62,344 nucleotides of DNA from Candidatus Bathyarchaeota archaeon (GCA_018396655.1 JAGTQF010000005.1:1-62344); one strand, 5' to 3'; counted from the stretch's first letter, positions 5,091 through 30,451 are shown. A program made the numbers and translations. Notes: generated by a model not told the origin, from the sequence alone.

Positions 5091-5165
5091 AAGCGTCTAT
5101 TAGGTTCCGCTAATTTTTTATTTTATGTTGAGCAGTCCAAAAATAATTGCCTGGGTGATGTCTTC

Positions 5166-7756: not shown

Positions 7757-7772
7757 TTGTGGAGAGGTACCT

Positions 7773-8591: not shown

Positions 8592-8711
8592 AACCTTCAT
8601 CAGTTTATACCTGTAACTCGGAAAGAGCTATAGAGTCTAAACTTCTAATCGAATGCAAGGTTAGTATTTTTAATCTTAGGTAGAATATATCTAGTTTATG
8701 GAGGGTGCCTA

Positions 8712-9815: not shown

Positions 9816-9825
9816 ATATATTGGC

Positions 9826-11385
9826 TTATCGATGTTTATGTCTCTTAAGCAATAGCCATATTAATGCAATGGCTGATGCAGTTAGAACTGGCAGTAATAA
9901 TATTATTAGGTCTAAGTTGTCTTCCACCCATATATATAGCGCTTCAAGCAGTGTTAAAGTGAACCTCGCTCTGGCTGTTTTTACCTCAGCTTTCTCCGGG
10001 CTGAGTGATAGATCTTCAACGCAATGCAGAACGTAATTGAGGCAATCTAGATTTAAATGTGCTTCCTTAACTTCCAAATCCACCGTTTTAAAGTTTAGTA
10101 TGGTTGTCCACATTCTTTCAGCAACATTTGTGCTCATCCCAACACAGCTACTTAAGGAATGTATATGCTCGGCTTCGCCAATTCTATCCGATCTTAAAAT
10201 GGTCTTTAACTTTTCTGCTCTCTTAACATTTCCGTTTAAATCCACCTCAACCATCAACGTGCGCCTCAGATTCTCATTTTCATAGGAATAGCCAACTAAT
10301 AGCAGACTGCTGTCATCTAGTGTAAGGACGCTGAGCGCGTTGTCGCTTCCTTGGGTTCCGATGGCCCTCGCCCAGTAGACTTCCCCCTCCAGCGTGAGAC
10401 ATGCCAATAGTATATCATTTCCTCCAGCTCCTAAACTCGACGTGTAGCCTGCGGCAAAGATTCTATCATTAACAACTTCTACCCCCAAGAATGCTTCTGC
10501 CTCTTTTCCACCAACAGCCCTAACCCACTTTAGCTCTCCGTCCTTAGATAATTTGATTAGTAAGCCGTCGCTCAATCCATACCCTGAACTCCACGTGGAG
10601 CCCACGAGGATAATGCTATCTTCACTTAACTTCTTAGCGCGGTAAATCTCGTCATACCTTGGTCCGCCGATAATTTTAGCCCATTTAATCTTTCCATCAT
10701 AAGTAACTTTTATAATAAGTATGTCCGTTAGGGCTGCTCCAAAGCTCCACGTATAGCCGAAAATCATATATCCATCATCTAGCTCGATCACATCTTTAAT
10801 GATATCGTTATAGTATGGTTCGCCTATCGCTATCGCCCAATTTATTTCACCACTAGGCTTAACTTGCATAATAAATCCATCGTATCCGGCTGTACTAAAG
10901 CTGGATGTATGGCCGACTATGAGCAGGTTGCCGGCGGAATCTTGAATGATTTTTGATGCCATATCTAATCTTGCTCCACCTATGCGTTTTGCGCTCTTTA
11001 AATCTCCGCTGGCGTCCACAATAACTAACAAGATTTCATAGTCTCTGTCTTGGCTGAGTGAGTAGCCAACTATAGCTATATCACCGCCGCTGAGAGGATG
11101 CAGGGAGTGGGCGTAAATTGGTTGATCTGAGAAGAGTATCTTTGACTTAATTATGCCCATAGTTCTATTAAACAACGCTATTCCAATTTCCCTTGTAGAA
11201 TACCTTTGTCCCCCAAAAGATAACTCTAAGTTTCCTAACGCTAAGAATCCATCGTTTATTTTCTTGAAGTCGGCTATAATGAAATTTGCATCAGTTAGTT
11301 CAGTTGCAACAATCCCTTTTAAAAGACATATCGGTGAAATGACCAATATCAGCATGAATATTAGAAGGCAATCCCTGAAGCCCAT
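9826..11385 (-). CDS. secreted, C-terminally membrane-anchored beta-propeller-repeat (SBBP-like) protein
   Basis: 519 aa. N-terminal signal-like helix. At least 6 tandem ~50-aa units of the type GYT-S-G...D-(L/I)-(I/L)-K-...-G---W. C-terminal TM LLLPVLTASAIALIWLLL followed by KRHKHR. Confidence 0.6.
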   Translation of the reverse strand: MGFRDCLLIFMLILVISPICLLKGIVATELTDANFIIADFKKINDGFLALGNLELSFGGQRYSTREIGIALFNRTMGIIKSKILFSDQPIYAHSLHPLSGGDIAIVGYSLSQDRDYEILLVIVDASGDLKSAKRIGGARLDMASKIIQDSAGNLLIVGHTSSFSTAGYDGFIMQVKPSGEINWAIAIGEPYYNDIIKDVIELDDGYMIFGYTWSFGAALTDILIIKVTYDGKIKWAKIIGGPRYDEIYRAKKLSEDSIILVGSTWSSGYGLSDGLLIKLSKDGELKWVRAVGGKEAEAFLGVEVVNDRIFAAGYTSSLGAGGNDILLACLTLEGEVYWARAIGTQGSDNALSVLTLDDSSLLLVGYSYENENLRRTLMVEVDLNGNVKRAEKLKTILRSDRIGEAEHIHSLSSCVGMSTNVAERMWTTILNFKTVDLEVKEAHLNLDCLNYVLHCVEDLSLSPEKAEVKTARARFTLTLLEALYIWVEDNLDLIILLLPVLTASAIALIWLLLKRHKHR

Positions 11386-11457
11386 TCAAGATCTAGATTT
11401 TGATTAAAGCAACAATGATAAATATTTTTTGGATTAGGGATGAGTTAACCTAAAAAA

Positions 11458-11466
11458 TTTTATATA
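11458..11466 (+). promoter_or_regulatory. putative TATA box (TTTTATATA) for the ABC transporter operon
   Basis: A-rich BRE-like tract then TTTTATATA about 40 nt upstream of ATG 11502. GGTGGG Shine-Dalgarno-like at 11493-11498. Confidence 0.3.
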
Positions 11467-11501
11467 GTGGTGTTAAAATTCCAATATTGTAAGGTGGGAA
11501 A

Positions 11502-14096: not shown

Positions 14097-14231
14097 AGCT
14101 GGAAAATATTAAATTCTCTCCCTATATTTTTTAAGATTCAAGGCTGAAAAAGAAACTATACTCTATCTATACATGGATCATCTGGAAATTAGTTTTCTCT
14201 GATAGGAGAAAAAGGAAAACTTTAAAAGATA

Positions 14232-15326
14232 GTGAAGAGAAGGATAAAAAAGTTGATAAAGATGAGCGTTAAGGGCCCCATACTCTTTATAGTTAAGAGG
14301 GCTATTGCGTTATATTTGATAGTAGTTCTCTCTGTCTACATAACGATCGTTATAGCTAACTTAGGAGGATATGTAGACAGAATAACGCAAGCTCAAATTC
14401 TAGAGGATATAACATTTACAATTAAAAGGGATCCTCAGTATAGAGGTCTCCCGCCAGAGGAGGTAGATCGAATAATAAGGGATACTTATGAATTGGAGCT
14501 TAAGAAACTGGGTTTAGATACGCCTTTCATAGTGAGGAGCTTCCGCTACTTAGTAAATGGATTAACATTAGATTTGGGTAGAGCGCTGTACTTAACCAGT
14601 GATACAGGCTCTAGGCAGGTTAAGCTAATAATACTTGAGAGGCTGCCGCAGACAGTGATGCTATTTACTACAGCTAGCGTCCTTAATTTCTTCATCCACC
14701 TCTTCTTAGGCTTATATTTATCGAGGCATTATGGAGGAAAGCTTGATAAATTATTTATCGCGTTATCCCCAACATCTATAGTTCCAGGATGGCTTTACGG
14801 TCTCTTTTTAATAATGATATTTGCTTCTATTTTAAGAGTGCTCCCATATGGCGGGTATGTGGATGTACCACCTCCAGATGATCCCGTAAGCTATGGCCTC
14901 AGCGTCTTAAAGCATATGATTCTACCATTATCTTCATGGATAATCTCCGGCTTCTTTATGGGAGTCTATGGCAGCAGAACATTCTACCTAATATTTTCGA
15001 CAGAAGACTATGTTACAGTAGCTAAAGCGAAGGGGCTTCCGCCAAGAATTATAGAGCGTCGATATATACTTAGACCAGCCCTCCCACCCGTCATAACTAG
15101 CTTCTCTCTCGGTCTTATAGGCTCATGGGGAGGAGCAATAATAACGGAGACGGTCTTTAATTGGCCTGGTCTAGGAAAAGTCATGCGTGATGCCATTAAC
15201 TCAATGGACACCCCAGTGATAGTAGGTGAAGTTATAATTTACGCCTATCTACTTGCGATCACTGTGCTGCTGTTAGATATCCTATACCTATTTATTGATC
15301 CGAGAATAAGGGCGAGGTTTAGGTGA
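14232..15326 (+). CDS. ABC transporter permease (OppB/DppB type)
   Basis: 364 aa, multi-TM. The motif region DYVTVAKAKGLPPRIIERRYILRPALPP is typical of the family. Confidence 0.85.
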   Translation: MKRRIKKLIKMSVKGPILFIVKRAIALYLIVVLSVYITIVIANLGGYVDRITQAQILEDITFTIKRDPQYRGLPPEEVDRIIRDTYELELKKLGLDTPFIVRSFRYLVNGLTLDLGRALYLTSDTGSRQVKLIILERLPQTVMLFTTASVLNFFIHLFLGLYLSRHYGGKLDKLFIALSPTSIVPGWLYGLFLIMIFASILRVLPYGGYVDVPPPDDPVSYGLSVLKHMILPLSSWIISGFFMGVYGSRTFYLIFSTEDYVTVAKAKGLPPRIIERRYILRPALPPVITSFSLGLIGSWGGAIITETVFNWPGLGKVMRDAINSMDTPVIVGEVIIYAYLLAITVLLLDILYLFIDPRIRARFR

Positions 15327-16771
15327 GCAACATGTCCGCTAGTGGCGAATTGAGCATTAAATCTATTGTTCGTGAGGTTCTCACATACAGGTCTGGCCAA
15401 GTAGGGGCTGCAATACTGCTCTTTCTAATAGGTCTATCAATATACGCTGTTATAGCCATACCCTATGATAGGGCTATAGCTTTATGGAGGGGGGAAGAAA
15501 GCTGCTGGATAGAAGTCCCCAGAAATGCCATGCCATACTGGTATAAATATATTATGAGAAAAAATCTCCCTGAAACCATTGTCGTCGACGGTTTAAGGGG
15601 TGATCCAGGAGTAATTAAGGCGGTTACTGAGATACCTGGAACCAACATAAAAAGGATACTGCTGGAGATATCCTTCACATATGACTATGACGATTTCCCA
15701 AGCGAGGTTAATCTATTTTTCTACGCCAATTATAGCGAAAGCCTCCCATTAATTAAAATTTACTGGATTAAGCCGGATGGCTCCAATATACCACTGATTT
15801 CCTATACTATTAGAAGACCCTACACAATCCTCTACTTAACGATAAATGATGATGTCCAAAAGAGTTTGCTGGAGTTCGTGAGGTCTAACGTAGGTGAGCC
15901 GAAAGAGTATATTGAGCCGCAGCTAATAATGTTTGCTGTAAACGATGAAACTATGCTCAGCGCTAAAACCGCTAAGATACTTAAGAGCACTGGCTCCCAG
16001 ATAAGAAAGTATACTCTTAGGATTGAAGGTATGCTCTTTGGGAAGGATAGTGACTTAAATGCTAAATTGGTTGTTTATGGTAAAGTCTACGGTTTCGCTG
16101 GAACAGACCATTTGAGGAGGGATGTTTCAATAGCGCTTTTATGGGGTACCCCAATAGCCCTAGCATTCGGTCTCACATCATCATTAGCAATATCGATAGT
16201 TCAATTGATAATAGCGGTGATAAGCGGATGGTATGGTGGAAAGGTTGACTTTATAATTCAGAGGCTAACAGAAATCTACATGATAATACCGTTTCTACCC
16301 TTCCTAATAATGATATCTTCGCTTTATAGGCTCACTATATGGGTGCTGGTGGCGGTGCTTCTCGTTCTAAGCATCTTTGGAGCCGGGGTGAAGAGTACAA
16401 GAGCTTTAGTTATGCAAGTTAAAGAGGAGCCGTACATAGAGGCTGCACTCGCATACGGTGCTTCATCCAGAAGAATAATCTTCCTCTATATAATACCTAA
16501 AATCCTCCCGCCAATGATACCCGGCCTCATAGGCTCAGTGCCAGGCTTCGTATTTTTAGAAGCATCTCTAGCATTTCTTGGACTGGGAGACCCATTCCTC
16601 CCAACATGGGGAAAGGTTATAAATGATGCGTTCTCCAATGGTGCGTTTTATAAGGGTTATTTGTGGTGGATAGGTCTTCCATCAATAATGCTAATTCTAA
16701 CGGCAATAAGCTTCGCATTAATCGGCTTCGCTCTAGATAAGATAGTTAATCCTAGATTGAGGGAATGGTAA
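15323..16771 (+). CDS. ABC transporter permease (OppC/DppC type)
   Basis: 482 aa. Long extracytoplasmic insert, EPYIEAALAYGASSRRIIFLYIIPKILPP motif, 4-nt overlap with the upstream gene. Confidence 0.85.
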   Translation: MSNMSASGELSIKSIVREVLTYRSGQVGAAILLFLIGLSIYAVIAIPYDRAIALWRGEESCWIEVPRNAMPYWYKYIMRKNLPETIVVDGLRGDPGVIKAVTEIPGTNIKRILLEISFTYDYDDFPSEVNLFFYANYSESLPLIKIYWIKPDGSNIPLISYTIRRPYTILYLTINDDVQKSLLEFVRSNVGEPKEYIEPQLIMFAVNDETMLSAKTAKILKSTGSQIRKYTLRIEGMLFGKDSDLNAKLVVYGKVYGFAGTDHLRRDVSIALLWGTPIALAFGLTSSLAISIVQLIIAVISGWYGGKVDFIIQRLTEIYMIIPFLPFLIMISSLYRLTIWVLVAVLLVLSIFGAGVKSTRALVMQVKEEPYIEAALAYGASSRRIIFLYIIPKILPPMIPGLIGSVPGFVFLEASLAFLGLGDPFLPTWGKVINDAFSNGAFYKGYLWWIGLPSIMLILTAISFALIGFALDKIVNPRLREW

Positions 16772-16772
16772 G

Positions 16773-17738
16773 TTGGCTGAGACCATTCTAGAAGTCAAGA
16801 ATTTATACATGTATTATAAGGTTAGGGACCATGCGGTGAAAGCTGTTGATAATATATCACTGGAGCTTAATAAAGGTGAAACATTGGCTATAGTTGGGGA
16901 GTCTGGCTGCGGGAAATCTTCTCTAGCGATATCGATCTTTAGGCTGCTGCCAAGAAATATATACCTGTTTAAGGGAGACATCTTCGTTGAGGGAGAAAAT
17001 ATAATGCGCCTCGACGAGGAGGAGTTTAGGAAACGCATTAGATGGCGCAAGATATCAATGGTTTTTCAGGGAGCCATGAACTCGCTAAACCCGGTGATAA
17101 AGTGCGGCTTCCAAATAGCTGAACCGCTGATAATTCATGATGGAGTGGATAAGGAAGAAGCCCTTAAAATCGCTAAGGAAACTTTAGCAATGGTTGGCGT
17201 TCACCCATCCTTCGCCGACCGCTATCCCTTTGAATTAAGTGGTGGAATGAGACAGAGGGTTGTCATAGCTATGGCGCTCATAAAAAAGCCGCCGATAGTA
17301 ATATTGGATGAGCCAACATCAGCTTTAGATGTAATAACTCAAGCAAATATAATGAACCTACTGAAGAGGCTGAAAGTAGAGCTAAAATTAAGCTATATCT
17401 TTATAACCCATGATATACCGCTAAGTAGCGAGCTAGCTGACAAGGTAGCTGTAATGTACGCTGGCGAAGTAGTGGAAAGGGCGCCAGCAGAAATATTCTA
17501 CGGATCACCAAGCCACCCATACTCAGCGAAATTGATGGCAAGCGTCCCAACCCTTAAAACTCTGAAGGAGATCGACTTTATACCTGGTGCTCCGCCTAAT
17601 TTGATTTCTCCTCCTCCCGGCTGTAGGTTCCATCCCAGATGCCCATATACAATGGACATATGCCGAATAGAAAGCCCACCAGAAATATACCTACAGAAAG
17701 ACCACATGGTAAGGTGCTGGCTCTACGCGAAAAAATAG
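16773..17738 (+). CDS. ABC transporter ATP-binding protein (OppD/DppD type)
   Basis: 321 aa. Walker A GESGCGKS, signature LSGGMRQR, Walker B ILDEPTSALD, C-terminal oligo_HPY Cys-rich tail. Confidence 0.9.
   Translation: MAETILEVKNLYMYYKVRDHAVKAVDNISLELNKGETLAIVGESGCGKSSLAISIFRLLPRNIYLFKGDIFVEGENIMRLDEEEFRKRIRWRKISMVFQGAMNSLNPVIKCGFQIAEPLIIHDGVDKEEALKIAKETLAMVGVHPSFADRYPFELSGGMRQRVVIAMALIKKPPIVILDEPTSALDVITQANIMNLLKRLKVELKLSYIFITHDIPLSSELADKVAVMYAGEVVERAPAEIFYGSPSHPYSAKLMASVPTLKTLKEIDFIPGAPPNLISPPPGCRFHPRCPYTMDICRIESPPEIYLQKDHMVRCWLYAKK
17592..17738. repeat. copy 1 of a perfect 147-bp direct repeat (3' end of the OppD-like gene)
   Basis: Base-for-base identical to 18578..18724 by manual alignment. 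Confidence 0.95.
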
Positions 17739-17749
17739 GGGTGATTAAT

Positions 17750-18724
17750 ATGCCACTGCTACAATTAGAGCAGTTGAGTAAATGGTTTGAGATTAAAAGG
17801 ACAATATTCAGCAAGCCGCTCTATTTGAGAGCCGTCGATGGTGTAAACCTGAGCCTGGAAGAGGGAGAGGCTATATCTATAGTTGGGGAGTCTGGCTGTG
17901 GGAAGACAACTCTAGGAAAGACCATTTTAAGGCTATATGAGCCTACTGGCGGGAAGATAATATTTGAGGGAAGAGATATAACTTTCGAGAGGGCTGAGGC
18001 CCTTCTATGGTATAAACGCAGAGCCCAGATAGTCCAGCAAGATCCATTTGGCAGCCTTCCGCCATTCTTCACAGTCTACCGTATACTTGAGGAACCTCTA
18101 CTAATTCACCAGATAGGCAATGCTAAACTGAGGAGGGAAATGATTTATAAGGCACTCGAGACTGTAAGATTAACTCCCGTAGAAGAGTTTGCGCCAAAAT
18201 ATCCGCATATGTTAAGTGGCGGGCAGAGGCAGAGGGTTGCTATCGCCAGAGCAATGATATTGAGACCAAAACTCATAGTGGCGGATGAGCCAGTATCTAT
18301 GCTTGACGCCTCCGTAAGGATAGAGATTCTAAAGCTAATGAGGGATCTTCAGAAAAGATTTAGTATGAGCTTCATTTATATAACCCATGACCTAGCCACC
18401 ACAAGATACTTCTCCGAAAGAATATCAATAATGTATGCCGGGCAAATAATTGAAATCGGACCAAGCAACAACATAATAAATGAACCGCTACACCCATATA
18501 CTCAAGCGCTGTTGAAGGCTATTCCGGACCCGGATGCCAACAATAGGAAGATTTTTAGAGAGGTTCCGCCTGGAGAGCCGCCTAATTTGATTTCTCCTCC
18601 TCCCGGCTGTAGGTTCCATCCCAGATGCCCATATACAATGGACATATGCCGAATAGAAAGCCCACCAGAAATATACCTACAGAAAGACCACATGGTAAGG
18701 TGCTGGCTCTACGCGAAAAAATAG
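17750..18724 (+). CDS. ABC transporter ATP-binding protein (OppF/DppF type)
   Basis: Start set at ATG 17750 (MPLLQLEQLSKWF). The ORF-track start 17639 lies inside the upstream gene. Walker A GESGCGKT, LSGGQRQR, ADEPVSMLD. Confidence 0.9.
   Translation: MPLLQLEQLSKWFEIKRTIFSKPLYLRAVDGVNLSLEEGEAISIVGESGCGKTTLGKTILRLYEPTGGKIIFEGRDITFERAEALLWYKRRAQIVQQDPFGSLPPFFTVYRILEEPLLIHQIGNAKLRREMIYKALETVRLTPVEEFAPKYPHMLSGGQRQRVAIARAMILRPKLIVADEPVSMLDASVRIEILKLMRDLQKRFSMSFIYITHDLATTRYFSERISIMYAGQIIEIGPSNNIINEPLHPYTQALLKAIPDPDANNRKIFREVPPGEPPNLISPPPGCRFHPRCPYTMDICRIESPPEIYLQKDHMVRCWLYAKK
18578..18724. repeat. copy 2 of the perfect 147-bp direct repeat (3' end of the OppF-like gene)
   Basis: Identical to 17592..17738, including the stop codon. 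Confidence 0.95.
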
Positions 18725-18875
18725 CATTAAACCGCTTCGGAAAACCGATTTTAGAGGTCTCATATTCATCATTGTTGGCTTAACCCTATTAGTAACATCA
18801 ATCCCGCTAATAGTTTACTTCTCATTCCTCTATTATAGAAGATATTATATAGCAGACACCCTCAACATTTTCCCC

Positions 18876-19352
18876 ATGGGGGAGATGGAAATAGCCTTTG
18901 AGCCTGGGACTCTAAGTCTCTCCTATAATGTTTCAGCTGTACCTAATGGTGCTTTCCAACTAAATTTAAGCATACTGGCTCTAGACCAGCTGGGCAGAGT
19001 CATCTATGAGAAAAGATACGAGTTATCTGATAGAAATCAGACGGCGGCCGGGTTAATAAATGAGGAGATAGCTAAGCTAGTTGTAAGGGCAAACATCGTT
19101 GAGGGCAATGGCGCTACATGTAAGGTTAATTTAGCCTACTTTAAACCTAATCTACTATACTTGGCAATAAACATAATTCTCTCTTTACTATCGATAGCCG
19201 GAGCAATCGCGACACTTTACGGTCTCCTACAACTCATCCTGCTAAAAATATCTCCTAAGCAGGAAGACACCACAACTTCTCAGCTTGAGGGAGGTGTCAG
19301 CTATGAAAACGGGCTGGTGCGTTTGGGTTACGGGTTTGCCTGGCAGCGGTAA
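18876..19352 (+). CDS. hypothetical protein with C-terminal TM helix (possibly decaying)
   Basis: 158 aa. TM LLYLAINIILSLLSIAGAIATLYGLL. 50-nt overlap with the next gene. An in-frame TM helix lies upstream without a start codon. Confidence 0.35.
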   Translation: MGEMEIAFEPGTLSLSYNVSAVPNGAFQLNLSILALDQLGRVIYEKRYELSDRNQTAAGLINEEIAKLVVRANIVEGNGATCKVNLAYFKPNLLYLAINIILSLLSIAGAIATLYGLLQLILLKISPKQEDTTTSQLEGGVSYENGLVRLGYGFAWQR

Positions 19353-19860
19353 GTCTACTGTTGCGCATTTACTGGCCGATAAGCTTAAGGCAATGGGTAT
19401 ACACGCCTATATTCTCTCTTCAGATGCTCTGCGTAAAGTTATGACACCTAACCCCAAGTATACTGAGGAGGAGCGCGACATAGTTTACGGAACCCTCGTC
19501 TACATCGCTAAGATATTAACTGAGAATGGCGTGAACGTGATCATTGACGCTACTGGTAATAGGCGTAAGTACCGCGATAACGCTAGAAGCCAGATACCAC
19601 TATTCATGGAAGCGTACTTAAGGTGTCCGCTAGAGGTTTGCATTGAGAGGGAGGCTAAGCGCGGCTTAGATGTTTATGGGGCGCCCAGAGAAGTTTACGC
19701 TAAAGCCTTCAGGGGTGAGAGTAAAACGGTTCCAGGGTTAGGTGCGCCATATGAGGAGCCGCTGAACCCAGAGATCGTTGTTGACTCAGATAAGCTGAGC
19801 CCCGAGGAGTGCGCCGAGAATATAATGAAAACCATAATTGAGAGGTTTGTTAGACAATAG
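19303..19860 (+). CDS. adenylylsulfate (APS) kinase-like P-loop kinase
   Basis: Start set at ATG 19303, preceded by GAGGGAGGTG. P-loop GLPGSGKST, and APS-kinase-like layout (NRRKYRD, EVCIEREAKRG, PYEEPLNPE). The canonical LDGD is LSSD here. Confidence 0.6.
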   Translation: MKTGWCVWVTGLPGSGKSTVAHLLADKLKAMGIHAYILSSDALRKVMTPNPKYTEEERDIVYGTLVYIAKILTENGVNVIIDATGNRRKYRDNARSQIPLFMEAYLRCPLEVCIEREAKRGLDVYGAPREVYAKAFRGESKTVPGLGAPYEEPLNPEIVVDSDKLSPEECAENIMKTIIERFVRQ

Positions 19861-20367: not shown

Positions 20368-22260
20368 CTAGGAAGATATTTTCCCAAGCTTCTCAAGTTC
20401 ATCGGCAACGTAACTTAAGCCTAGATCTTCCAGCTTCTTTCTAGTTGGCACACCGGTTTTAGCATCCCAGCCTCTCGCAGCATAATAATCATCTAACAGC
20501 CTGTCAAGCTCAAATATCTGACCTCTTGCGGGATCCCTTGGGAACGGCACCTTCTGCAGCCTTTCAGGCAGCCAGTCATCCTTCCTCGTCATCCCCTCCC
20601 TAACGTTGAACGCCCTCTCAACATTATATACTCTCTCACCAACAAGCCAAATATAACCAGGATCCTTGAACTCTTCTATCCCAGTGGCGGCATATAGAAC
20701 CTTTCCCATCCACTCCATAGTCTTCTCAACGTTGCCGTAGCCAGCGGTCTGGACGAGCTCAGCGAATGCACACCAGCCAGCCGCCTCAAAGGCTGCTATT
20801 TGATCCTGAACCCTCTTCGCCAGAACGCCCTTACCCTCAACAGTTAATGGATCAACTTTCTCAGGCATACCGAGTATCTCGTACTTATTCCAGCCTATCA
20901 TATGGCTTCCGCCTATATTTGAGGTTGCGTAGCTCAGCCCATGAGCCTTTGCAGCTCTCGGATCATAGGCCGGTAGCTCAAGGCACTTGCTATGCATGGC
21001 GAACTTCTCGGCGCCTCTACCTATAATCTCAGCCGCCCTAGCGGTGCCTTCAGCCAATATGTTGCCTATGCCCTCCCTAAGGGCAATCTTCCTAACCAGC
21101 TCAACCATAGCGTCTCCGTCACCCCACCTCAACCTTAAGCCGTCAGTCTCCCTATCAGTTAATATGCCCTTCTCATATAGCTCCATAGCGAAGGCAACTA
21201 TGGCGCCAGTAGATATCGTATCAAGCCCATACTTATCGCAGAGCATATTAGCGTATGCTATAGCCTCAAGATTCGTAATCCCGCACGTTGACCCAAGGCT
21301 CCAGTGAGTCTCATACTCCGGGAAGTCCCAGAGTAAACCTGCATATGGACCCTTGGTTAGCTTCCATTTCTTGCCGCATGCTATCATACAGGTAAAGCAA
21401 CCATAATGCTTAATAACATACTTCTCAAGAACCTCAGTTCTCCAGATCTCAGCATTCTCCAGCTCAGTATTCTTAAAGTTGTAGGTTGGATTATGCCCCA
21501 AAGTATAGAACTGATAGACTACCGAGTTTGTGCCAAGGCTGTGGAAGGCGTCGAAGAGCGGGCTCCTCTTATATACGTCAATCTGCTCCTTCACAAGCTC
21601 CCTAAAGAGATCCTCATTAAAGAGCTCTGGCTTTTTGGTGCCAAGCGCAACTATAGCCTTAAGATTCTTAGAGCCCCATATGGCTCCCCCTCCGCCCCTT
21701 CCAGGGGTCCTGTAATCGTCCGTCACAAGGCAAGCTACTCTAACAAGTCTCTCACCAGCCGGACCGATAGCTAGAACCCTAGCATTCTTATCCGTCTCCT
21801 CTCTAAGAATTTCTGTAGCCCCATCAACCGTAGCTCCCCAAACGTGGCCAGCATCCCTAAATTCAATGTCGTCATCATGTATCCAGACATATGTGGGCTT
21901 CTCAGCTCTACCCTCAATTATTATGGCGTCATAGCCAGCGGACTTAACCTCTGCAGCAAAGAACCCTCCACCAGTAGATCTAAAATATCCACACGTTAAG
22001 GGAGACTTAAACATGGCGAAGGTTCTATGGAAGCTTTGAGCAGCCGTCCCCGCAAGGGGGCTAAGCGCTAAAATCATCTTGTTTTCCGGGCATAAAGGGT
22101 CGACTCCCGGCTTAACCTCGTCCCACAGTATCTTAGCCCCAAAACCCCTAGCGCCTATAAAGTCTCTGGCCATATCATATGGCAGTTCAATCTTAACAGC
22201 GGATCTATGGGTCAAATCCAGCCTAAGTATTCTGCCAGCGTAACCATACAATTTTCCCAT
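20368..22260 (-). CDS. aor: aldehyde:ferredoxin oxidoreductase (tungstopterin AOR family)
   Basis: 630 aa. N-terminal GYAGRILRLDL and typical AOR_N/AOR_C layout, with Cys ligand region CFTCMIAC. Confidence 0.9.
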   Translation of the reverse strand: MGKLYGYAGRILRLDLTHRSAVKIELPYDMARDFIGARGFGAKILWDEVKPGVDPLCPENKMILALSPLAGTAAQSFHRTFAMFKSPLTCGYFRSTGGGFFAAEVKSAGYDAIIIEGRAEKPTYVWIHDDDIEFRDAGHVWGATVDGATEILREETDKNARVLAIGPAGERLVRVACLVTDDYRTPGRGGGGAIWGSKNLKAIVALGTKKPELFNEDLFRELVKEQIDVYKRSPLFDAFHSLGTNSVVYQFYTLGHNPTYNFKNTELENAEIWRTEVLEKYVIKHYGCFTCMIACGKKWKLTKGPYAGLLWDFPEYETHWSLGSTCGITNLEAIAYANMLCDKYGLDTISTGAIVAFAMELYEKGILTDRETDGLRLRWGDGDAMVELVRKIALREGIGNILAEGTARAAEIIGRGAEKFAMHSKCLELPAYDPRAAKAHGLSYATSNIGGSHMIGWNKYEILGMPEKVDPLTVEGKGVLAKRVQDQIAAFEAAGWCAFAELVQTAGYGNVEKTMEWMGKVLYAATGIEEFKDPGYIWLVGERVYNVERAFNVREGMTRKDDWLPERLQKVPFPRDPARGQIFELDRLLDDYYAARGWDAKTGVPTRKKLEDLGLSYVADELEKLGKISS

Positions 22261-22431: not shown

Positions 22432-23700
22432 TTAGCAGCCGCCCAACCGTATCACTATGACCGTGTCGACTGAATCTAAAGGTTTATCCGGCACATGTAT
22501 AATTAAATCCTCATTGTCCCAACTATAGTTTAGACTCTTCTGTGATGGATCTAGAAGAAAATATGCTTTTTCAGGCTCTATTACACCTTTAACCCCAAAG
22601 ATCCTTAAGCAGCCGTCCCAAGGCCATCCAAACACATGAACATATAGTCTCCCAGGCTTATAAGTGAATTTGTATGGAGCATCTGTTGGAGCGTCGAATG
22701 GAGCCGCCCCAGCTCCATATATGCTCTCACCATTGTTCTTAAGCCACTTCCCAACCTCTAAAAGTATATCTACTGATGGCTTAGGTATCTCTCCCTCCGC
22801 AGTTGGACCAACATTTAGTAGGAGGTTCCCTCCTTTGCTTACAACATCCACAAGGATCTGTATGACTTTGCCAGGAGATTTCCAATTGTGGTCATAGCTC
22901 TTGTAACCCCAAGTATCGTTAAGCGTCATCGGGACCTCCCAATCATCTTCAATCTTCCTATCAGGGATCTGGTTATCTCCCATGGTGATATAATCCCCTA
23001 AACCTTTACACATCGTGCTTGGCATCCTTAGGTATCCGCCTATACGTCCACTTATAATCGTGTTTGGCGATATTTCAAGGACAAAATCCCTAAGCTCACG
23101 AGCAAGCTCAGGAGTAGGCGTAGTTATATCAAACCATAAAACCGCTACCGGACCATACCCTGTAAGGAGCTCTTCAAGCTGAGGCTTAACATACTCCTTA
23201 ATATATCTGGTGAAATTCTGTTTAGAAATATCGTAGTCCCAAAAGTTCCCCATTCCATCCGGATGATGCCAGTCGAGCGTCTGGGAGTAATAGAAGCCTA
23301 ATTTTAACCCCTCCTCCCTACAGGCCTCGGAAAGCTCTTTTAAGGGGTCTCGCTTGAATGGGGTCGCCTTCACAATATTGTAGTCTGTGTATTTTGTGTT
23401 AAACATGCAGAAGCCGTCATGATGCTTAGCCGTTATAACTATGTACTTCATACCAGCCTCCCTAGCTATCCTAACCCATTCCTTCGCATCAAACTTAGTC
23501 GGATTGAATTTCTCTGCGAGCCTCTCATACTCTTTCACTGGTATCTTGGCATTATACATTATCCATTCTCCTATGCCGGGTATGCACCTACCCCTCCAAA
23601 CACCAGCAGGTATAGCGTACAAACCCCAATGAATAAACATACCAAACCTCGCTTCACGCCACCACACCATCTTATCGCCTTGCCCATCCATAAAATACAC
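22432..23700 (-). CDS. alpha-L-fucosidase, GH29
   Basis: 422 aa. WWREARFGMFIHWGLYAIPAG, KHHDGFCMFNT. No obvious signal peptide. Confidence 0.85.
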   Translation of the reverse strand: MYFMDGQGDKMVWWREARFGMFIHWGLYAIPAGVWRGRCIPGIGEWIMYNAKIPVKEYERLAEKFNPTKFDAKEWVRIAREAGMKYIVITAKHHDGFCMFNTKYTDYNIVKATPFKRDPLKELSEACREEGLKLGFYYSQTLDWHHPDGMGNFWDYDISKQNFTRYIKEYVKPQLEELLTGYGPVAVLWFDITTPTPELARELRDFVLEISPNTIISGRIGGYLRMPSTMCKGLGDYITMGDNQIPDRKIEDDWEVPMTLNDTWGYKSYDHNWKSPGKVIQILVDVVSKGGNLLLNVGPTAEGEIPKPSVDILLEVGKWLKNNGESIYGAGAAPFDAPTDAPYKFTYKPGRLYVHVFGWPWDGCLRIFGVKGVIEPEKAYFLLDPSQKSLNYSWDNEDLIIHVPDKPLDSVDTVIVIRLGGC

Positions 23701-24480: not shown

Positions 24481-24559
24481 TGGTGGGGCCGGTGGGATTT
24501 GAACCCACGACCACGCACGCCCCAGGCGCGTATCTTAGACCAAGCTCGACCACGGCCCC
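24481..24559 (-). tRNA. tRNA-Pro (anticodon GGG), 79 nt with encoded CCA
   Basis: Hand-folded on the minus strand: GGGGCCG-TG-GTCG-AGCTTGGTCTA-AGAT-A-CGCGC-CTGGGGC-GTGCG-TGGTC-GTGGG-TTCAAAT-CCCAC-CGGCCCC-ACCA. Confidence 0.9.
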
Positions 24560-24803: not shown

Positions 24804-24962
24804 TGTTCCGAAGTAGCGTTGCAGATTTATGGCCGTATCCTCTTGAGCTTCTTCCAGGGGTACTAAACGTGGCGAGCTGTGGGCGCGTGGGGATGACTAG
24901 ATTAGCAATTATAAGAAACTCTTAATTACCTATATGCATGTACTCTAAGATTTAGAAGCATT

Positions 24963-26231
24963 TTGGTGGTCCTCATGGAGGAGTTAGCGATAAATGGTGG
25001 GCCGAAAACTAGAACCAGACCGCTTCCAAGCAGGAGGGATATAGGGGCAGAAGAGCTTAAAGAAATAATAGATGTTATATGGTCTGGTCAGCTGAATAGG
25101 GTTGGTGGAACAAAAGTTATTGCCTTTGAGAGGGAGTTTGCAAACCTTTATGGGGTCAAGCATGCTATAGCATCTACTTCCGGGACGGCGGCAATACATG
25201 TGGCTTTTGGGGCAATAAACCCGGAGCCATGCTCAGAAATTATAACTGGCCCAATAAGCGACATAGGCTCAGTAATTCCAATACTTTATCAAAACTGTAT
25301 TCCCATATTTGCTGATATAGAATTGGGGACTTACGGTTTAGACCCTGATGATGTTGAGAGAAAGATAACGGATAGGACTGTAGCCGTGCTCGCAATACAT
25401 CTTTTTGGTCTGTGTGGCGATATGGATAGGCTGTCTAAGATCTGTAAAGAGCATGGCATTTATCTCATTGAAGATTGCTCCCAAGCTCATCTGGCAGAGT
25501 ATAAGGGTAGGCTTGCTGGAACAATAGGCGACTTTGGATGCTTCAGCCTACAGCAGTCAAAGCAGATAACCTGCGGTGACGGAGGAGTAACAATAACCAA
25601 TAATGATGAGCTCGCTGATAGAGCTCGCTTATTTGCTGATAAGGCTTGGCCCAGAGGAGGCGCTGATGATAGAGGCTACTTGTTTCTAGCCATGAATTAT
25701 AGAATGACCGAACTCCAAGGCGCTGTAGCTTTAGCACAAGTGCGTAAGGCGAAGGATATTGTTGCCAGAAGGAGAAGGGCTGGCGATATGCTAACCAAGC
25801 TCCTGAAGGAGATTGAAGGGGTGAAGCCGCCTGAAGTCCCGCCAGGGTCGGCCCATTCTTATTGGCTCTATCCATTCACTATCGATAGAGAGGTTTTGAA
25901 GGTTCGCCCAGAGGAGTTTGCGAGGGCTCTATCAGCTGAGGGGATACCTGCTAGTGTTGGATACATTAAAAAGCCGCTCTACCTATTTAAGGTGCTTAAA
26001 GAGCAGGTTACATACGGATCTTCGCATTGCCCATTTGACTGCCCACGCTATGGCAGAAAGATAGAGTATAGAGAAGGCGACTGTCCGAACGCCGAAAGAA
26101 TCCTTAAAGAAATAATTACAATACCAATAAATGAATTTTACACGGAGGAGGATATTAACGATATTTTCAGGGCCATAAGTAAAGTGGCGAATTATTATAG
26201 GAATAGGAACCTGCAGCCTTGCAGTAGCTAA
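24963..26231 (+). CDS. DegT/DnrJ/EryC1/StrS-family PLP-dependent aminotransferase
   Basis: 422 aa. SGTAAIHVA, DCSQAH, and the PLP-Lys region FSLQQSKQITCGDGG. Confidence 0.85.
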   Translation: MVVLMEELAINGGPKTRTRPLPSRRDIGAEELKEIIDVIWSGQLNRVGGTKVIAFEREFANLYGVKHAIASTSGTAAIHVAFGAINPEPCSEIITGPISDIGSVIPILYQNCIPIFADIELGTYGLDPDDVERKITDRTVAVLAIHLFGLCGDMDRLSKICKEHGIYLIEDCSQAHLAEYKGRLAGTIGDFGCFSLQQSKQITCGDGGVTITNNDELADRARLFADKAWPRGGADDRGYLFLAMNYRMTELQGAVALAQVRKAKDIVARRRRAGDMLTKLLKEIEGVKPPEVPPGSAHSYWLYPFTIDREVLKVRPEEFARALSAEGIPASVGYIKKPLYLFKVLKEQVTYGSSHCPFDCPRYGRKIEYREGDCPNAERILKEIITIPINEFYTEEDINDIFRAISKVANYYRNRNLQPCSS

Positions 26232-26342: not shown

Positions 26343-27257
26343 TTATGCCGAAAAAACATTAGTTACAAACTTTTTGGCAGCTTCGATTAGTTCTTGCATC
26401 TTTGCTTTTGTGGGAGTCTTAAGATTTCTTGCAGGGTACTCAATGCCTAACGCCCTGTATTTTACTTCTCCAAGCCTATGGAAGGGTAAGAGCTCAAGAA
26501 ACATCAGGTTCTTAAATGACTGTATAAATTTAGCTATTGCCGCGATCGCTTCAGGCGAATCATTAACGGTTGGTACTATTGGGATGCGAATTATCAGGGG
26601 CTTATCGGTTTCAGCGAGCTTCTTTGCGTTTTCAAGTATGATATCGTTTCTTACCCCCGTCGCCTTATAGTGAACCTCCGAGTCAATATGCTTTATATCC
26701 ATCATTATAAGGTCTGTTACGGAAAGAAGTTTCTCAAGAACCTCCCATCTGCAGTAGGCTGCTGTTTCAATGGCAGTGTGAAGCCCCTCAGATTTACATC
26801 TTTCAAGGAAGGCGTATGAAAACTCATATTGCATTACCGGATCTCCACCAGATAAAGTCACGCCGCCATTTGAAGCATTGTAAAACGGTTTATCCATTAA
26901 AACTACTTTAATTAAATCATCGACATTCATCCATTTGCCCACAAACTGAAGGGCGCCGGAATAACAGCTCTCTGCGCATCTACCGCAATTCTCACATTTA
27001 TCCCTGAAGTAAACATGAATATTGTTTCTTATCTCATGTGCGCCTCTAGGGCACGTAGCCATGCAAGCACCACAACTGATACATCTCTCCGGATAAAACA
27101 TTATTTCCTGCTTCAGCTTTAATCCTTCAGGGTTCTGACACCAGAAACAGCGGAGGGGGCACCCCTTTAAAAATACAGTAGTGCGTATACCCGGACCATC
27201 ATGAACCTCAAAACGCTTTATGTCGAAGATCAAGCCTTTAACCACAAAAACCACCAT
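26343..27257 (-). CDS. glycyl-radical enzyme activating protein (radical SAM, with two auxiliary ferredoxin-like clusters)
   Basis: 304 aa. CPLRCFWCQNPE (CX3CX2C) plus CISCGACMATCP and CENCGRCAESC. Confidence 0.9.
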   Translation of the reverse strand: MVVFVVKGLIFDIKRFEVHDGPGIRTTVFLKGCPLRCFWCQNPEGLKLKQEIMFYPERCISCGACMATCPRGAHEIRNNIHVYFRDKCENCGRCAESCYSGALQFVGKWMNVDDLIKVVLMDKPFYNASNGGVTLSGGDPVMQYEFSYAFLERCKSEGLHTAIETAAYCRWEVLEKLLSVTDLIMMDIKHIDSEVHYKATGVRNDIILENAKKLAETDKPLIIRIPIVPTVNDSPEAIAAIAKFIQSFKNLMFLELLPFHRLGEVKYRALGIEYPARNLKTPTKAKMQELIEAAKKFVTNVFSA

Positions 27258-27266
27258 TCATTATCG

Positions 27267-29534
27267 CTAGGACTCCTCTGCGAGGATTCTATCCACCACG
27301 AACTGCCTTAGATCTTTAGATAGGCTAGCGAAGTAAGCGCTGAAGCCCGTTACACGCACTATCAGATCAGGATACTTTGATGGGTCCTTATGGGCTTCAA
27401 GTATCTTCTCTTTATCAATAACATTCATGTTAATCATTGTTCCACCCAGCTTGAAATGTCCAAGTATTAAGGCTTTAACGATCTCTTTGCCATTTTTTCC
27501 TCTGAAAACTGTTGGATCAATGTCTAATTGTAATGGCGCCGTGTTTCCATAACCACATTGTATTGCCGCGACAGCTATGGCTAGTGATGTTGGGGTGCCA
27601 CCAAACCCCGGCTCGGGATTAGCCCCCTGCGATATCGGTGCGCCTGCGCGCCGCCCGTTCGGTGTCGCACCAACCCTTTGGCCCATGGAGAGCATGCTTG
27701 CCCAGGAAAAGAGCCCTGGAATAATGTTGTATCCTTTAGGCGTCGGCTTCTCTTTAACCAGTCGAACAAATGTTTTAGCGATTTTAACCGCCCATTCATC
27801 GGCGTGAGTCCCGCCTTGTCCATAGTGCGGTATGTTACGCAGCATTAACCGGATATATTCATTCCTAAAGTTGTTTTTAAGCTCCTCGGCGAGCTCCCTC
27901 CACGAAATCCTTTTCTCTTTTTCTACCCTTAATTCTATGGCAGCGAAAGAGTCGGCTACGGTGCCTATGCCGGCCCCATCTAGACATAAATTATAGTATT
28001 CGACTCCTCCGTGAGATGCATCTAGACCTTTCTCTATCGGGCCGTAGCAGAGAAGATCTAATACTAGCTCGGGGAAAACCTTATGCATATTTTCCATGTG
28101 AAAATCTAAACCTTCTCGAACAATATCTATCGCTTTTCTTAAATGTGTCTCGAATCGGCTCCATAGCTCCTCAACGCTCGGATTAACGTTCGGATCACTC
28201 ATCATTTCCCAAAATGCAACCTCGAAGACTTTAGCAAAATTAATTTTGACGCAGTCTTGTAAGGCGTATTCTTTTCCCGGAATAGCAAACCAGTGACAAC
28301 CAGAGTAGGCTCTTTCACGTGCAAGCTCAACTGAATAACCGTTCCTCATAAAGCCCTCTATTAATGCGTCGCCGCCCAGGAATTTCGGGAAACCCATCTT
28401 ATCTTCAAGCATTATTTCTATGCCTCTGTCCAAGAGCCTTGGATCTAAACCCTCCCAAACAAATATCCCTATATTAGCTGGCGCTTTAAGTCTGTGAACA
28501 GCCTCTAAGACAAGATATGAGAGCTTATTTGTGACATCTTTACCGCTAGCATCCGGTCCGCCAAGCTGATAGTATTGTGTATCATTTAAAAACAGGCATG
28601 CGAGGTGGAAAATGGCTTCTTCATCAGTTAATATGCCGGCGGCCACATCACGCTCATAGAATGGTTTAAGCCACACGTCGATTCTCCCCATAGAGCCGCT
28701 TCCATTATACATTCGGGCAATCATTTGATACCAAGCTGTCCACTGGCAAGCTTCCCAGAATGTTCTAGGCGGCTCATTAATTAACCGCTCATTTATATCG
28801 GCCAGATCTTTTAAGTTCCTGCGTAAAGTTGGGTTTCTCTCTTTCTCAGCGAGCTCCCTAGCCGCCTTAACATGTCTAGCTATCCATTCCTGAACCCCGA
28901 TAACTACGCTCTCCAATCCGTCGTAGAATTCTGCTGCCTGAGGATTAATCTCCCGATAATAGCGTATTTTCCTCAGTAATCCTCCCCAACCAAGGCTGAA
29001 GCCTATCTGCATATCTTGGCAGAAATGCTGAACTGCGCCTACGCCTGGGTAAATATCGTATTTGCTCCAAGCCTCCACTAAATGCTGTGGTGGGGAAAGA
29101 TCCGGATTCCAATGCGGGTCTCGGTAGCTCATAAAATAGGCCATATAGCCGCCAAGAATAGAGCTAAAAGGATTGATGTAAACCGGATGCGAGGAAAGAA
29201 ACAATCTGAAGTTTTCTCCGCAAATCTTCGGCCCAAAAAACCCTCCACTCGGGTGATTGCTTATAGGCTTAAAGTTATTTAATTTCACATCTCTAACCGG
29301 TTCACCTGAAGGCCCCATGTACTCGACTATTTCTCTGAGCTCGGGTGGTGGAAGAAGTCTCCCGTGATCATCCTGGTCCATAATGCCAATAACTTTCTGT
29401 TTCTCATGAGTATGCTTCATCTTTATCTCTCGTAGAATCTCCAATCGTTCACTGAAAGTTAGCTCCTCATTTAGTTTATTCAGCCTTTCTAAAAATGTAC
29501 TGGGGTCCTCATAAATAATGAGGTTACTTTCCAT
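27267..29534 (-). CDS. glycyl radical enzyme (PFL-like, substrate unknown)
   Basis: 755 aa. C-terminal TPNGRRAGAPISQGANP ... LIVRVTGFSAYF glycine-radical motif. Cys loop candidate YSGC(413)HWFAIPG lies ~317 aa upstream of the radical Gly. Confidence 0.9.
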   Translation of the reverse strand: MESNLIIYEDPSTFLERLNKLNEELTFSERLEILREIKMKHTHEKQKVIGIMDQDDHGRLLPPPELREIVEYMGPSGEPVRDVKLNNFKPISNHPSGGFFGPKICGENFRLFLSSHPVYINPFSSILGGYMAYFMSYRDPHWNPDLSPPQHLVEAWSKYDIYPGVGAVQHFCQDMQIGFSLGWGGLLRKIRYYREINPQAAEFYDGLESVVIGVQEWIARHVKAARELAEKERNPTLRRNLKDLADINERLINEPPRTFWEACQWTAWYQMIARMYNGSGSMGRIDVWLKPFYERDVAAGILTDEEAIFHLACLFLNDTQYYQLGGPDASGKDVTNKLSYLVLEAVHRLKAPANIGIFVWEGLDPRLLDRGIEIMLEDKMGFPKFLGGDALIEGFMRNGYSVELARERAYSGCHWFAIPGKEYALQDCVKINFAKVFEVAFWEMMSDPNVNPSVEELWSRFETHLRKAIDIVREGLDFHMENMHKVFPELVLDLLCYGPIEKGLDASHGGVEYYNLCLDGAGIGTVADSFAAIELRVEKEKRISWRELAEELKNNFRNEYIRLMLRNIPHYGQGGTHADEWAVKIAKTFVRLVKEKPTPKGYNIIPGLFSWASMLSMGQRVGATPNGRRAGAPISQGANPEPGFGGTPTSLAIAVAAIQCGYGNTAPLQLDIDPTVFRGKNGKEIVKALILGHFKLGGTMINMNVIDKEKILEAHKDPSKYPDLIVRVTGFSAYFASLSKDLRQFVVDRILAEES

Positions 29535-29575
29535 TCGACTTAGCCATCTCCTATATATTATATATTTGTTTCCAT

Positions 29576-30451
29576 TTAGAGCTTCAGAAGTCTTTCAGCA
29601 TTCTTATAAAGAATTCTTTCGTATGCTTTCTCGCTTAAATTCATCCTTTCCAAAATATTGTGAATCTCAATTTTCTGTGACTTTAGGAGGAGATCGGTTC
29701 CAAAGAGAAGCTTTAAGCTGTTTCTCTCTAAGAATTCTCTTGCGTACTCAGGGTCACGGCTGAGGGCGTTTTCTCCGGAATTAGCGGATAAGTCGGCATA
29801 AACATTATTGTATGTCTGTAGCAAATATTCCACTTTCCCACCGGGTTTTATTGGTCCGCTTGGATAACCACTTTTATCGCTTGGCTTCACATCGGCTGAT
29901 ATTTCAGCCCACCAATGGGGGCCATGTGCAACAAAAATAGTTTTGCTGTAAATTTTAATAATTTTCTCAAATTTTGGCAAGCCGATGTCATCGATACAAC
30001 GGTATGCGTCAAAGTGCATGACTATAGGTATGTTGAGTTCGCCAGCAGCCCTATAAATCTTCTGCATCCTATAATCATCTACTTCGAGGCCAGCCAATAG
30101 CTCTCCAAATCCTCTGCACCCCTTAGACACGTAATCCTCGATTATTGGATATGGATCGAATTTGTCCGGGTCACCCCTCCGCGGATCCACGTTACAGAAA
30201 GGTATGAGCCTATCCTTATACCTTTTAATGGCCCTTAAAACGCTGCTGGTGGTTGAGTAGAAGTCTGTTTCCTCAGGATTTTCGAGTGGAAGGACGCATG
30301 CTATGCTTATTCCCAGCTCATCCATCCTCTTTAGGAGATCTTTTGCGGTAAATTTGGGATACGTTCTCCATAGCTTTCCTATGTGGGTGTGAAAATCTAT
30401 AACTTTATACCTTGAGATGAGACTACCGCCCGATGTTTTTGACATAGACAT
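29576..30451 (-). CDS. amidohydrolase_2-type metal-dependent TIM-barrel hydrolase/decarboxylase
   Basis: 291 aa. VIDFHTHIG N-terminal metal motif, VAHGPHWW, LFGTD near the C-terminus. Confidence 0.7.
   Translation of the reverse strand: MSMSKTSGGSLISRYKVIDFHTHIGKLWRTYPKFTAKDLLKRMDELGISIACVLPLENPEETDFYSTTSSVLRAIKRYKDRLIPFCNVDPRRGDPDKFDPYPIIEDYVSKGCRGFGELLAGLEVDDYRMQKIYRAAGELNIPIVMHFDAYRCIDDIGLPKFEKIIKIYSKTIFVAHGPHWWAEISADVKPSDKSGYPSGPIKPGGKVEYLLQTYNNVYADLSANSGENALSRDPEYAREFLERNSLKLLFGTDLLLKSQKIEIHNILERMNLSEKAYERILYKNAERLLKL

Follow-up and report, generated by a model that had tools for sequence, protein, structure and literature searches.

All eliminases and isomerases among the characterised glycyl radical enzymes (GREs) keep a C-x-E motif in the active-site loop, i.e. 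the cysteine that carries the thiyl radical is followed at the second position by a glutamate (June 2026 review, PMC13450708). The enzymes in question (GD, PD, CutC, HypD, IslA, HpsG, PflD, YbiW, and HplG) use the glutamate to contact a hydroxyl of the substrate (PMC13450708). This glutamate is conserved in all known eliminases and has proved essential where it was mutated (PMC13450708; PMC7077986). According to the same review, no archaeal GRE of the pyruvate formate-lyase (PFL)-like type has an assigned function, and the same is true of whole clades of these enzymes (PMC13450708). Here we analyse a PFL-like, oxygen-sensitive GRE with a different loop, which is encoded together with its activating enzyme (activase) in a 62,344-nt stretch of Candidatus Bathyarchaeota DNA (GCA_018396655.1 JAGTQF010000005.1:1-62344, in the following “the window”). 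The feature block spans positions 26343-30451 and includes a third gene, for an Amidohydrolase_2 protein. On balance, we regard it as probable that the pair is a working GRE with a dedicated activase, that it belongs to an uncharacterised clade with a C-x-W loop, and that it acts on a sugar-derived substrate by a chemistry that does without the canonical glutamate.

The three open reading frames (ORFs) for the amidohydrolase, the GRE, and the activase are co-directional on the minus strand, with gaps of 41 bp between the amidohydrolase and the GRE and of 9 bp between the GRE and the activase (Table 1). The GRE is matched by the Pfam models PFL-like (PF02901, 341.7 bits) and Gly_radical (PF01228, 52.7 bits, residues 636-735). 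Cys413 is part of the sequence YSGCHWFAIPG and Gly730 of the motif RVTGFSAYF, at a spacing of 317 residues. The phmmer alignment with glycerol dehydratase (1R8W) places G-C413-H-W on G-C433-V-E435, and this register identifies Cys413 as the thiyl cysteine and Trp415 as the replacement of the canonical glutamate. The sequence hallmarks of the GRE superfamily are present, i.e. a barrel domain, a C-terminal RVxG glycine domain, a thiyl cysteine in register, and a cognate activase nearby. An AlphaFold2 model of the GRE reached a predicted template-modelling (TM) score of 0.84, and a Foldseek search with this model yielded TM scores of 0.74-0.79 to the propanediol, glycerol, and hydroxyproline dehydratases and to CutC, confirming the generic GRE fold.

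The activase contains the Pfam domains Radical_SAM and, twice, Fer4, and it scores 365.6 bits with TIGR02494 (cut-off 174). Its translation shows the motif C33-x3-C37-x2-C40 and two CX2CX2CX3C motifs (C59-C69 and C88-C98). It is thus of the long type with two extra clusters and not of the PflA type, the model of which (TIGR02493) gives 218 bits at a cut-off of 232. The GRE-activase pair is intact and conserved.

For the GRE, every NCBIfam equivalog model of a characterised subfamily stayed far below its cut-off, i.e. TIGR01774 with 282 (281.8) versus 678, HpsG with 248 versus 1000, HypD with 245 versus 1100, PRK09983 with 225 versus 1109, CutC with 184 versus 1050, IAD (NF033718) with 156 versus 1100, HPAD (NF033715) with 141 versus 1150, and PFL (TIGR01255) with 95.5 versus 994. 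The best relatives in the PDB are glycerol dehydratase (218 bits, about 22-25% identity in structural alignments), followed by propanediol dehydratase, HpsG, HypD, and PflD, while succinate synthases and PFL are the weakest matches. A HMMER search of 1.84 billion representatives resulted in 1146 matches at E <= 1e-30. The top 150 of these matches included 98 full-length proteins, each representing a cluster at 50% identity, and 26 of them have a C-x-W loop and 63 a C-x-E loop. The 26 C-x-W proteins are divided into eight with CNW, six with CHW, six with CFW, three with CQW, and one each with CPW, CGW, and CYW. In a neighbour-joining tree, the smallest clade that holds all C-x-W sequences contains nothing else, and thus no C-x-E protein. 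The mean identity is 32% inside the C-x-W group and 25% to the C-x-E enzymes. None of ten diverse C-x-W representatives exceeded any NCBIfam cut-off, PDB searches with two C-x-W queries (this GRE and one C-F-W representative) retrieved no close solved structure, and the literature search for a characterised C-x-W GRE turned up none. At the level of sequence, these comparisons show that the GRE belongs to a deep, single, and distinct C-x-W clade of PFL-like GREs without a characterised or solved member.

We mapped the active site of glycerol dehydratase onto the GRE. Four elements are retained: His164 (in H-V-S-V-D) corresponds to H170 (in H-F-C-Q-D) in a MAFFT alignment and is conserved in both the C-x-W and the C-x-E group, Ser282 corresponds to S279 in the phmmer alignment, Tyr339-Gln340 is aligned with Y322-Q323, and Asp447 with D427, which is found in 100% of the C-x-W proteins. 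Two residues are replaced, i.e. Glu435 by W415 and Tyr640 by F609, the latter adjoining an invariant S610-W611. W415 occurs in 100% of the 26 C-x-W representatives and in 0% of the 63 C-x-E representatives. Additional residues that are conserved in the C-x-W group and rare in the C-x-E group are W183, R274, E422, Y423, E489 (100% versus 2%), N639, P667, and T729. The exchange of the C-x-E glutamate for tryptophan implies that the route of all characterised eliminases and isomerases, in which a glutamate-dependent deprotonation leads to a ketyl radical, is not open to the enzyme in the same form.

Among the 120 best database clusters, identity to the GRE is 60-94%, and the named ones stem from metagenome-assembled genomes (MAGs) of Bathyarchaeia, Chloroflexota/Anaerolineae, and Firmicutes. 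The G-C-H-W loop is present in 117 of these clusters; in the remaining three, Asn or Gln occupies the position of His, and the tryptophan is found in all of them. RVTGFSAYF is kept in 115 of the 120 clusters, and C413, H414, W415, and G730 are invariant in an alignment of 21 sequences. Using one genome per GTDB species, we found 298 stretches that encode a relative of the GRE, and the counts of GRE loci given below refer to the best 80 of these 298. The 80 loci, all from MAGs, belong to Bathyarchaeia, Anaerolineae, Bacteroidota, Ignavibacteriota, Planctomycetota, KSB1, Poribacteria, Armatimonadota, Aerophobetes, and Clostridia, and most family members are bacterial. Archaeal and bacterial members share 60-70% identity, which suggests that GRE genes have been transferred between the domains. 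On three contigs of Anaerolineales and Bacteroidota, two paralogous G-C-H-W GRE genes flank a single activase gene.

The window itself is archaeal (Bathyarchaeia), because the nearest relative of the GRE (94% identity) is labelled Bathyarchaeia and because archaeal-type genes are found in the window, i.e. GatD/GatE and a class I lysyl-tRNA synthetase; an Rpb5-type RNA polymerase subunit is annotated on contigs with the same locus. An earlier note on this DNA, made from the sequence alone, had described three packed minus-strand genes, a GRE with an RVTGFSAYF motif, an activase with CX3CX2C and two ferredoxin-like clusters, and Cys413, about 317 residues from the radical glycine, as the thiyl residue of a loop with the pattern of neither PFL (C-C) nor the eliminases (C-x-E). 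The ORFs lie exactly where it had placed them, and these readings are borne out by the results above, as is its view that the enzyme stands outside the characterised GRE subfamilies. The same note had called the GRE archaeal, which is correct for the host and does not hold for the mostly bacterial family.

Clues to the substrate come from the gene neighbourhoods. An activase gene is present within 7 kb of the GRE gene (<=7 kb) in 48 of the 80 loci, 44 times upstream and four times downstream, the latter being the arrangement in the window. About 20 bacterial loci have the order activase-GRE-URO-D-like-SBP_bac_1-two permeases, often followed by a PfkB (RfaE-domain-I-like) kinase. These operons with a URO-D-like gene, a sugar ATP-binding cassette (ABC) transporter, and a PfkB kinase occur in Bacteroidota and Ignavibacteriota. 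A census of 122 genes that directly flank a GRE gene is headed by URO-D (21 of 122), followed by Gfo/Idh/MocA, MR_MLE, SBP_bac_1, AP_endonuc_2, and GH20. In Chloroflexota, the GRE gene follows a gene of the enolase superfamily (galactonate-dehydratase-like), with genes for an MFS transporter, DUF362, fructosamine-kinase-like, DHDPS-family, GH20-like, and GH116 proteins in the vicinity, as well as Gfo/Idh/MocA and glycosidase genes. Further neighbours of GRE genes encode Gfo/Idh/MocA proteins, an aldo-keto reductase, GH38, GH28, and sulfatases. Carbohydrate genes thus recur around the GRE clade.

Directly 3′ of bacterial G-C-H-W GREs, the gene found most often encodes the URO-D-fold protein, which has about 365 aa (e.g. 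L035:9462-10559 and L064:9313-10413, and about 20 others). It has only remote similarity to known proteins (39-55 bits with MtaA-family models and a single PDB match with E = 4e-4), and it offers no usable functional lead. It contains a His-x-Cys motif (YHNCG), which we take to be the zinc site of the MtaA-type methyltransferase family.

The sister C-N-W subfamily was found in more than 570 genome stretches, with Bacteroides thetaiotaomicron, Flammeovirga, Labilibaculum filiforme, and Chakrabartyella piscis among the hosts. The C-N-W loci have the order AraC regulator-activase-GRE-138-aa protein, followed by sugar transporters (Sugar_tr, RhaT-like), and they also contain GH92 and GH47 alpha-mannosidases, Gfo/Idh/MocA proteins, and a PMI-like cupin. 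The 138-aa protein, which has no Pfam match, is encoded directly 3′ of the GRE in 16 of 80 C-N-W loci and could be a small accessory subunit of the C-N-W GRE.

In the window, the GRE is set in a sugar island of roughly 30 kb. The part to the left of the GRE block extends from 793 to 19860, and genes for an aldehyde:ferredoxin oxidoreductase (AOR) and an alpha-L-fucosidase are added to it (Table 1). The FGGY kinase and the class II aldolase resemble the pair of a fuculose/rhamnulose route, and the AOR would lend itself to the disposal of an aldehyde that is derived from a deoxy-sugar or produced by the GRE. An AOR homologue is also encoded 2 kb from the GRE in one bacterial locus (L017).

By analogy with the known family, the activase would reductively cleave S-adenosylmethionine and take the C-alpha hydrogen of Gly730. 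The reaction would then be started by a thiyl radical at Cys413, which would abstract a hydrogen from the substrate. The substrate would be a hydroxyl-rich, carbohydrate-derived compound, and it may be held in part by aromatic stacking with W415, F609, and W611. Its sugar origin is suggested by the bacterial neighbourhoods, the loci of the sister C-N-W subfamily, and the sugar island of the window. The predicted chemistry is a radical cleavage of a C-O (possibly a C-C) bond with a rearranged set of acid/base residues, in which His170 is retained and His414, Glu422, and Glu489 are candidates.

Several points weigh against this view. The AlphaFold2 model has a low confidence exactly at the Cys loop, with values below 50 in the predicted local distance difference test for residues 411-427. 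The clade was defined with a rough neighbour-joining tree of 98 representatives, and not with a full phylogeny including characterised references. The link to carbohydrates is guilt by association, and the neighbours are uninformative in many loci, i.e. in most Bathyarchaeia and many Anaerolineae. Lastly, the aromatic residues in the active site would be compatible with a hydrophobic or aromatic substrate as well.

A bolder version of this reading, which we put forward only tentatively, is that the C-x-W GREs, i.e. the archaeal enzyme and its relatives in Bacteroides thetaiotaomicron, Flammeovirga, and many MAGs from sediments, represent a reaction class so far unseen among GREs. For example, a sugar or a sugar derivative could be deoxygenated, opened at its ring, or cleaved at a C-C bond by a radical mechanism that is independent of the glutamate. 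If true, this would add an unrecognised anaerobic carbohydrate route and the first function of an archaeal PFL-like GRE. GREs perform chemistry that is otherwise closed to anaerobes, and each newly assigned class has revealed a new metabolic route, e.g. choline lyase, hydroxyproline dehydratase, the sulfonate lyases, and the anhydro-sugar isomerases. With the C-x-W loop, the invariant Glu489, and the Tyr-to-Phe change, a signature of the clade is now defined and tied to sugar-utilisation loci, and cultured hosts of the sister C-N-W subfamily, in which genetics is possible, have been identified.

The earlier note had proposed that the amidohydrolase is the partner of the GRE in a dedicated two-step pathway for one substrate, in which a hydrolysis or decarboxylation precedes the radical step. 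Members of the Amidohydrolase_2 family (PF04909) include sugar lactonases and non-oxidative decarboxylases. The protein in the window scores 47.7 bits with the Pfam model (cut-off 26.4), and H21, H23, H146, H176, and D253 are invariant in its family; searches of NCBIfam and of the PDB sequences gave no meaningful match. The 41-bp gap and the common direction of the two genes, which are found in the window and in every genome with an identical amidohydrolase, speak for a pathway, and the amidohydrolase may be co-transcribed with the GRE in the window. However, a tBLASTn search with the amidohydrolase was negative for all 80 GRE loci (0/80), and conversely a GRE was found in none of 80 amidohydrolase loci (0/80). 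Amidohydro_2 is absent from the 25 commonest families in the census of genes directly flanking a GRE. The triad of amidohydrolase, GRE, and activase is confined to contigs that encode the identical amidohydrolase protein and share the synteny of the window. In four genomes with GREs of 94% identity, the gene upstream of the GRE encodes a DUF6785/DUF6784 membrane protein, while the layout GRE-activase-DegT (opposite strand) is kept and is followed by a SBP_bac_5 ABC transporter. In a MAG with a GRE of 82% identity, a homologue of the amidohydrolase shares the contig with the GRE, at a distance of more than 25 kb (L001, L095).

The amidohydrolase family comprises 950 clusters and was found in more than 587 genome stretches. 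It extends to Gimesia and Natronolimnohabitans, which we assume to be aerobic lineages, and this argues against the two-step pathway. In addition, a TATA-like element (AAATATATAATATATA) lies between the two genes, centred about 25 nt 5′ of the ATG of the GRE, and could be a putative promoter of its own for the GRE, yielding a transcript that is leaderless or has a very short leader.

The recurrent neighbour of the amidohydrolase is instead a DegT aminotransferase, which is encoded in 17 of the 80 amidohydrolase loci, mostly those of the closest relatives. The two genes are adjacent in the arrangements M55-amidohydrolase-DegT (L095), DegT-amidohydrolase (L096), DegT-AP_endonuc_2-DegT-amidohydrolase-DegT-amidohydrolase-DUF6785 (L090), and GHL6-amidohydrolase-DegT (L093), in which stop and start codons overlap. 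Together with three further loci (L103, L104, and L116), these represent a recurrent module of Amidohydro_2 and one to three DegT aminotransferases, which often includes a GHL6/GH42M-like protein of 680 aa, a xylose-isomerase-like TIM barrel, Peptidase_M55, and a DUF6785 membrane protein. This module is present in Bathyarchaeia, Ratteibacteria, Omnitrophota, Aerophobetes, and others. As DegT is the recurrent neighbour of the amidohydrolase, the GRE-activase pair of the window has one half of a DegT-amidohydrolase module on either side. That DegT flanks the GRE pair as well could be counted in favour of a common pathway; it adjoins the GRE also in two of the GRE loci. A Caldilineae contig (L114) encodes the amidohydrolase and an activase of 59% identity 5 kb apart, and also a GHL6-like protein, all within 6 kb, which is a weak hint that the GRE and amidohydrolase modules sometimes meet. 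Overall, the amidohydrolase is part of a separate DegT-amidohydrolase module without a conserved link to the GRE. A common two-step pathway is therefore unlikely, and the earlier interpretation of the locus is largely wrong in this respect. The flanking DegT, the role of which the note had left open, turned out to be the more consistent neighbour of both the GRE lineage and the amidohydrolase.

A hydrophobic or aromatic substrate, i.e. a decarboxylase of the arylacetate type or a fumarate-adding enzyme similar to the X-succinate synthases, as debated for the Archaeoglobus GRE, seems quite improbable to us. It would agree with the aromatic replacements at W415, F609, and W611, with the Gln instead of Glu at the Cys+2 position of phenylacetate decarboxylase (PMC13450708), and with the uninformative neighbours in many archaeal loci. 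However, IAD (156 bits), HPAD (141 bits), MasD (E = 8e-26), and TutD (E = 5e-21) are the weakest full-length matches of the GRE, the gaps on both sides of the GRE gene are too small for small-subunit genes, and genes for sugar transporters, sugar kinases, and glycosidases recur in the neighbourhoods.

An ordinary B12-independent diol dehydratase for 1,2-propanediol or glycerol has a very low probability. In this scheme, the enzyme would serve fucose catabolism, in which the fucosidase, the FGGY kinase, and the class II aldolase would lead via lactaldehyde to propanediol, the GRE would form propionaldehyde, and the AOR would oxidise it. All four accessory enzymes are encoded in the window, the glycerol and propanediol dehydratases are the nearest solved relatives, and the equivalents of His164, Ser282, and Asp447 are kept. 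Yet every member of the family has Trp in place of the catalytic C-x-E Glu, which is conserved in the known eliminases and essential where it has been exchanged (PMC13450708; PMC7077986), the TIGR01774 score is less than half of its cut-off at a low overall identity, and Tyr640 is exchanged for Phe.

A PFL, i.e. a formate C-acetyltransferase producing acetyl-CoA and formate, is extremely improbable, as only the names in the source annotations speak for it, while Cys413 is preceded by Gly412 and followed by His414 and thus lacks the adjacent Cys pair, TIGR01255 is missed by an order of magnitude, matches to PFL structures are limited to the C-terminal 185 residues (E = 9e-25), and the activase is of the long type rather than the PflA type. 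The relatives are likewise annotated as “formate C-acetyltransferase” or “pyruvate formate lyase family”, and it is very unlikely that the products of these C-x-W genes, which are so named in MAG-based reconstructions, form formate from pyruvate. In summary, the assignments as PFL, canonical diol dehydratase, decarboxylase, and succinate synthase were rejected on account of the loop, the cut-offs, the structure matches, and the neighbours.

Table 1. Coordinates of the GRE block and of neighbouring features in the window
Feature	Position	Strand	Remarks
Glycyl radical enzyme, 755 aa, C-x-W clade, G-C-H-W subfamily	27267..29534	-	PFL-like + Gly_radical
Thiyl-loop codons G412-C413-H414-W415	28290..28301	-	aligned on G432-C433-V434-E435 of glycerol dehydratase
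Glycyl radical motif codons R727-V-T-G730-F-S-A-Y-F735	27330..27356	-	inside Gly_radical domain
GRE activating enzyme, 304 aa, radical SAM + two ferredoxin-like 4Fe-4S motifs	26343..27257	-	TIGR02494
Amidohydrolase_2 TIM-barrel metal hydrolase, 291 aa	29576..30451	-	PF04909
A/T-rich TATA-like element AAATATATAATATATA, in the 41-bp amidohydrolase-GRE gap	29552..29567	-	read from the sequence
DegT/DnrJ/EryC1-family pyridoxal phosphate aminotransferase, convergent with the activase	24963..26231	+	PF01041, 295.7 bits
Alpha-L-fucosidase	22432-23700	-	
Tungsten-type aldehyde:ferredoxin oxidoreductase (AOR)	20368-22260	-	downstream of the fucosidase, same strand
FGGY carbohydrate kinase	793-2355		
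Class II aldolase	2389-3057		
Xylose-isomerase-like TIM barrel	7773-8591		
Five-gene SBP_bac_5 ABC transporter	11502-18724		
Other genes of the sugar island	inside 793-19860		SDR, AIR-synthase-like, Amidohydro_1, Gfo/Idh/MocA, APH-type kinase, APS-kinase-like

The base composition shows no anomaly across the feature block. A tRNA-Pro (GGG) gene (24481-24559, minus strand) separates the block of the fucosidase and an AsnC gene from the DegT-activase-GRE-amidohydrolase block. The relatives with GREs of 94% identity carry the GRE-activase-DegT block in a different neighbourhood, which indicates a relocation of the block; an integrase was not seen. DNA matching the locus is contained in hot-spring metagenomes. 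The metatranscriptome run X13 yielded contigs with 89-99% identity over the GRE, the DegT, the fucosidase, and the 3′ part of the amidohydrolase, which may include DNA carry-over; none of its contigs extends across the amidohydrolase-GRE junction, and none covers the activase. Relative to the window, one metatranscriptome contig from a related population lacks 96 nt (24877-24974), located just ahead of the annotated TTG start of DegT and reaching slightly past it. A strain-level deletion is the probable cause, and the gap suggests that the true start of DegT is the ATG four codons downstream (MEELAING...).

Among the known systems, glycerol dehydratase (1R8W/1R9D) and propanediol dehydratase (5I2A/5I2G) are most similar to the GRE. 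They share the ten-stranded barrel, the RVxG glycine loop and the Cys loop in register, the equivalents of His164, Ser282, Tyr339-Gln340, and Asp447, and an activase with two auxiliary clusters. They differ in the C-x-E Glu and in Tyr640, at the positions of which the GRE has Trp415 and Phe609, and the GRE belongs to a separate clade. PflD and YbiW (8ID0, 8ID7, 8YJO), which open the ring of 1,5-anhydrohexitol-6-phosphate, are characterised GREs that act on sugar derivatives in sugar-utilisation contexts. Their similarity to the GRE is comparable (192 and 162 bits), with PRK09983 far below its cut-off. In both enzymes C-x-E is preserved, and the Glu forms a hydrogen bond with a substrate hydroxyl (PMC13450708).

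Phenylacetate decarboxylase (PAD/PhdB) is a characterised GRE with Cys482 and Gln484, as cited in PMC13450708, and the Gln at Cys+2 shows that GRE catalysis does not require C-x-E. PAD, which we compared by its description only, acts on an arylacetate, whereas the context of the GRE family is related to carbohydrates. PflB belongs to the same superfamily; its C418-C419 pair is absent from the GRE, and only the C-terminal part can be aligned. PFL2 of Archaeoglobus fulgidus (2F3O), the only structurally characterised archaeal PFL-like GRE, the function of which is debated, is no closer to the GRE (E = 1.3e-50, TM score 0.76) than the bacterial eliminases are. The X-succinate synthases are characterised by genes for small accessory subunits and by closeness to BssA/MasD, both of which are absent in the case of the GRE. 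With the Amidohydrolase_2 enzymes, the protein in the window shares the residues H-x-H, His, His, and Asp, and its conserved partner is DegT, and not a GRE.

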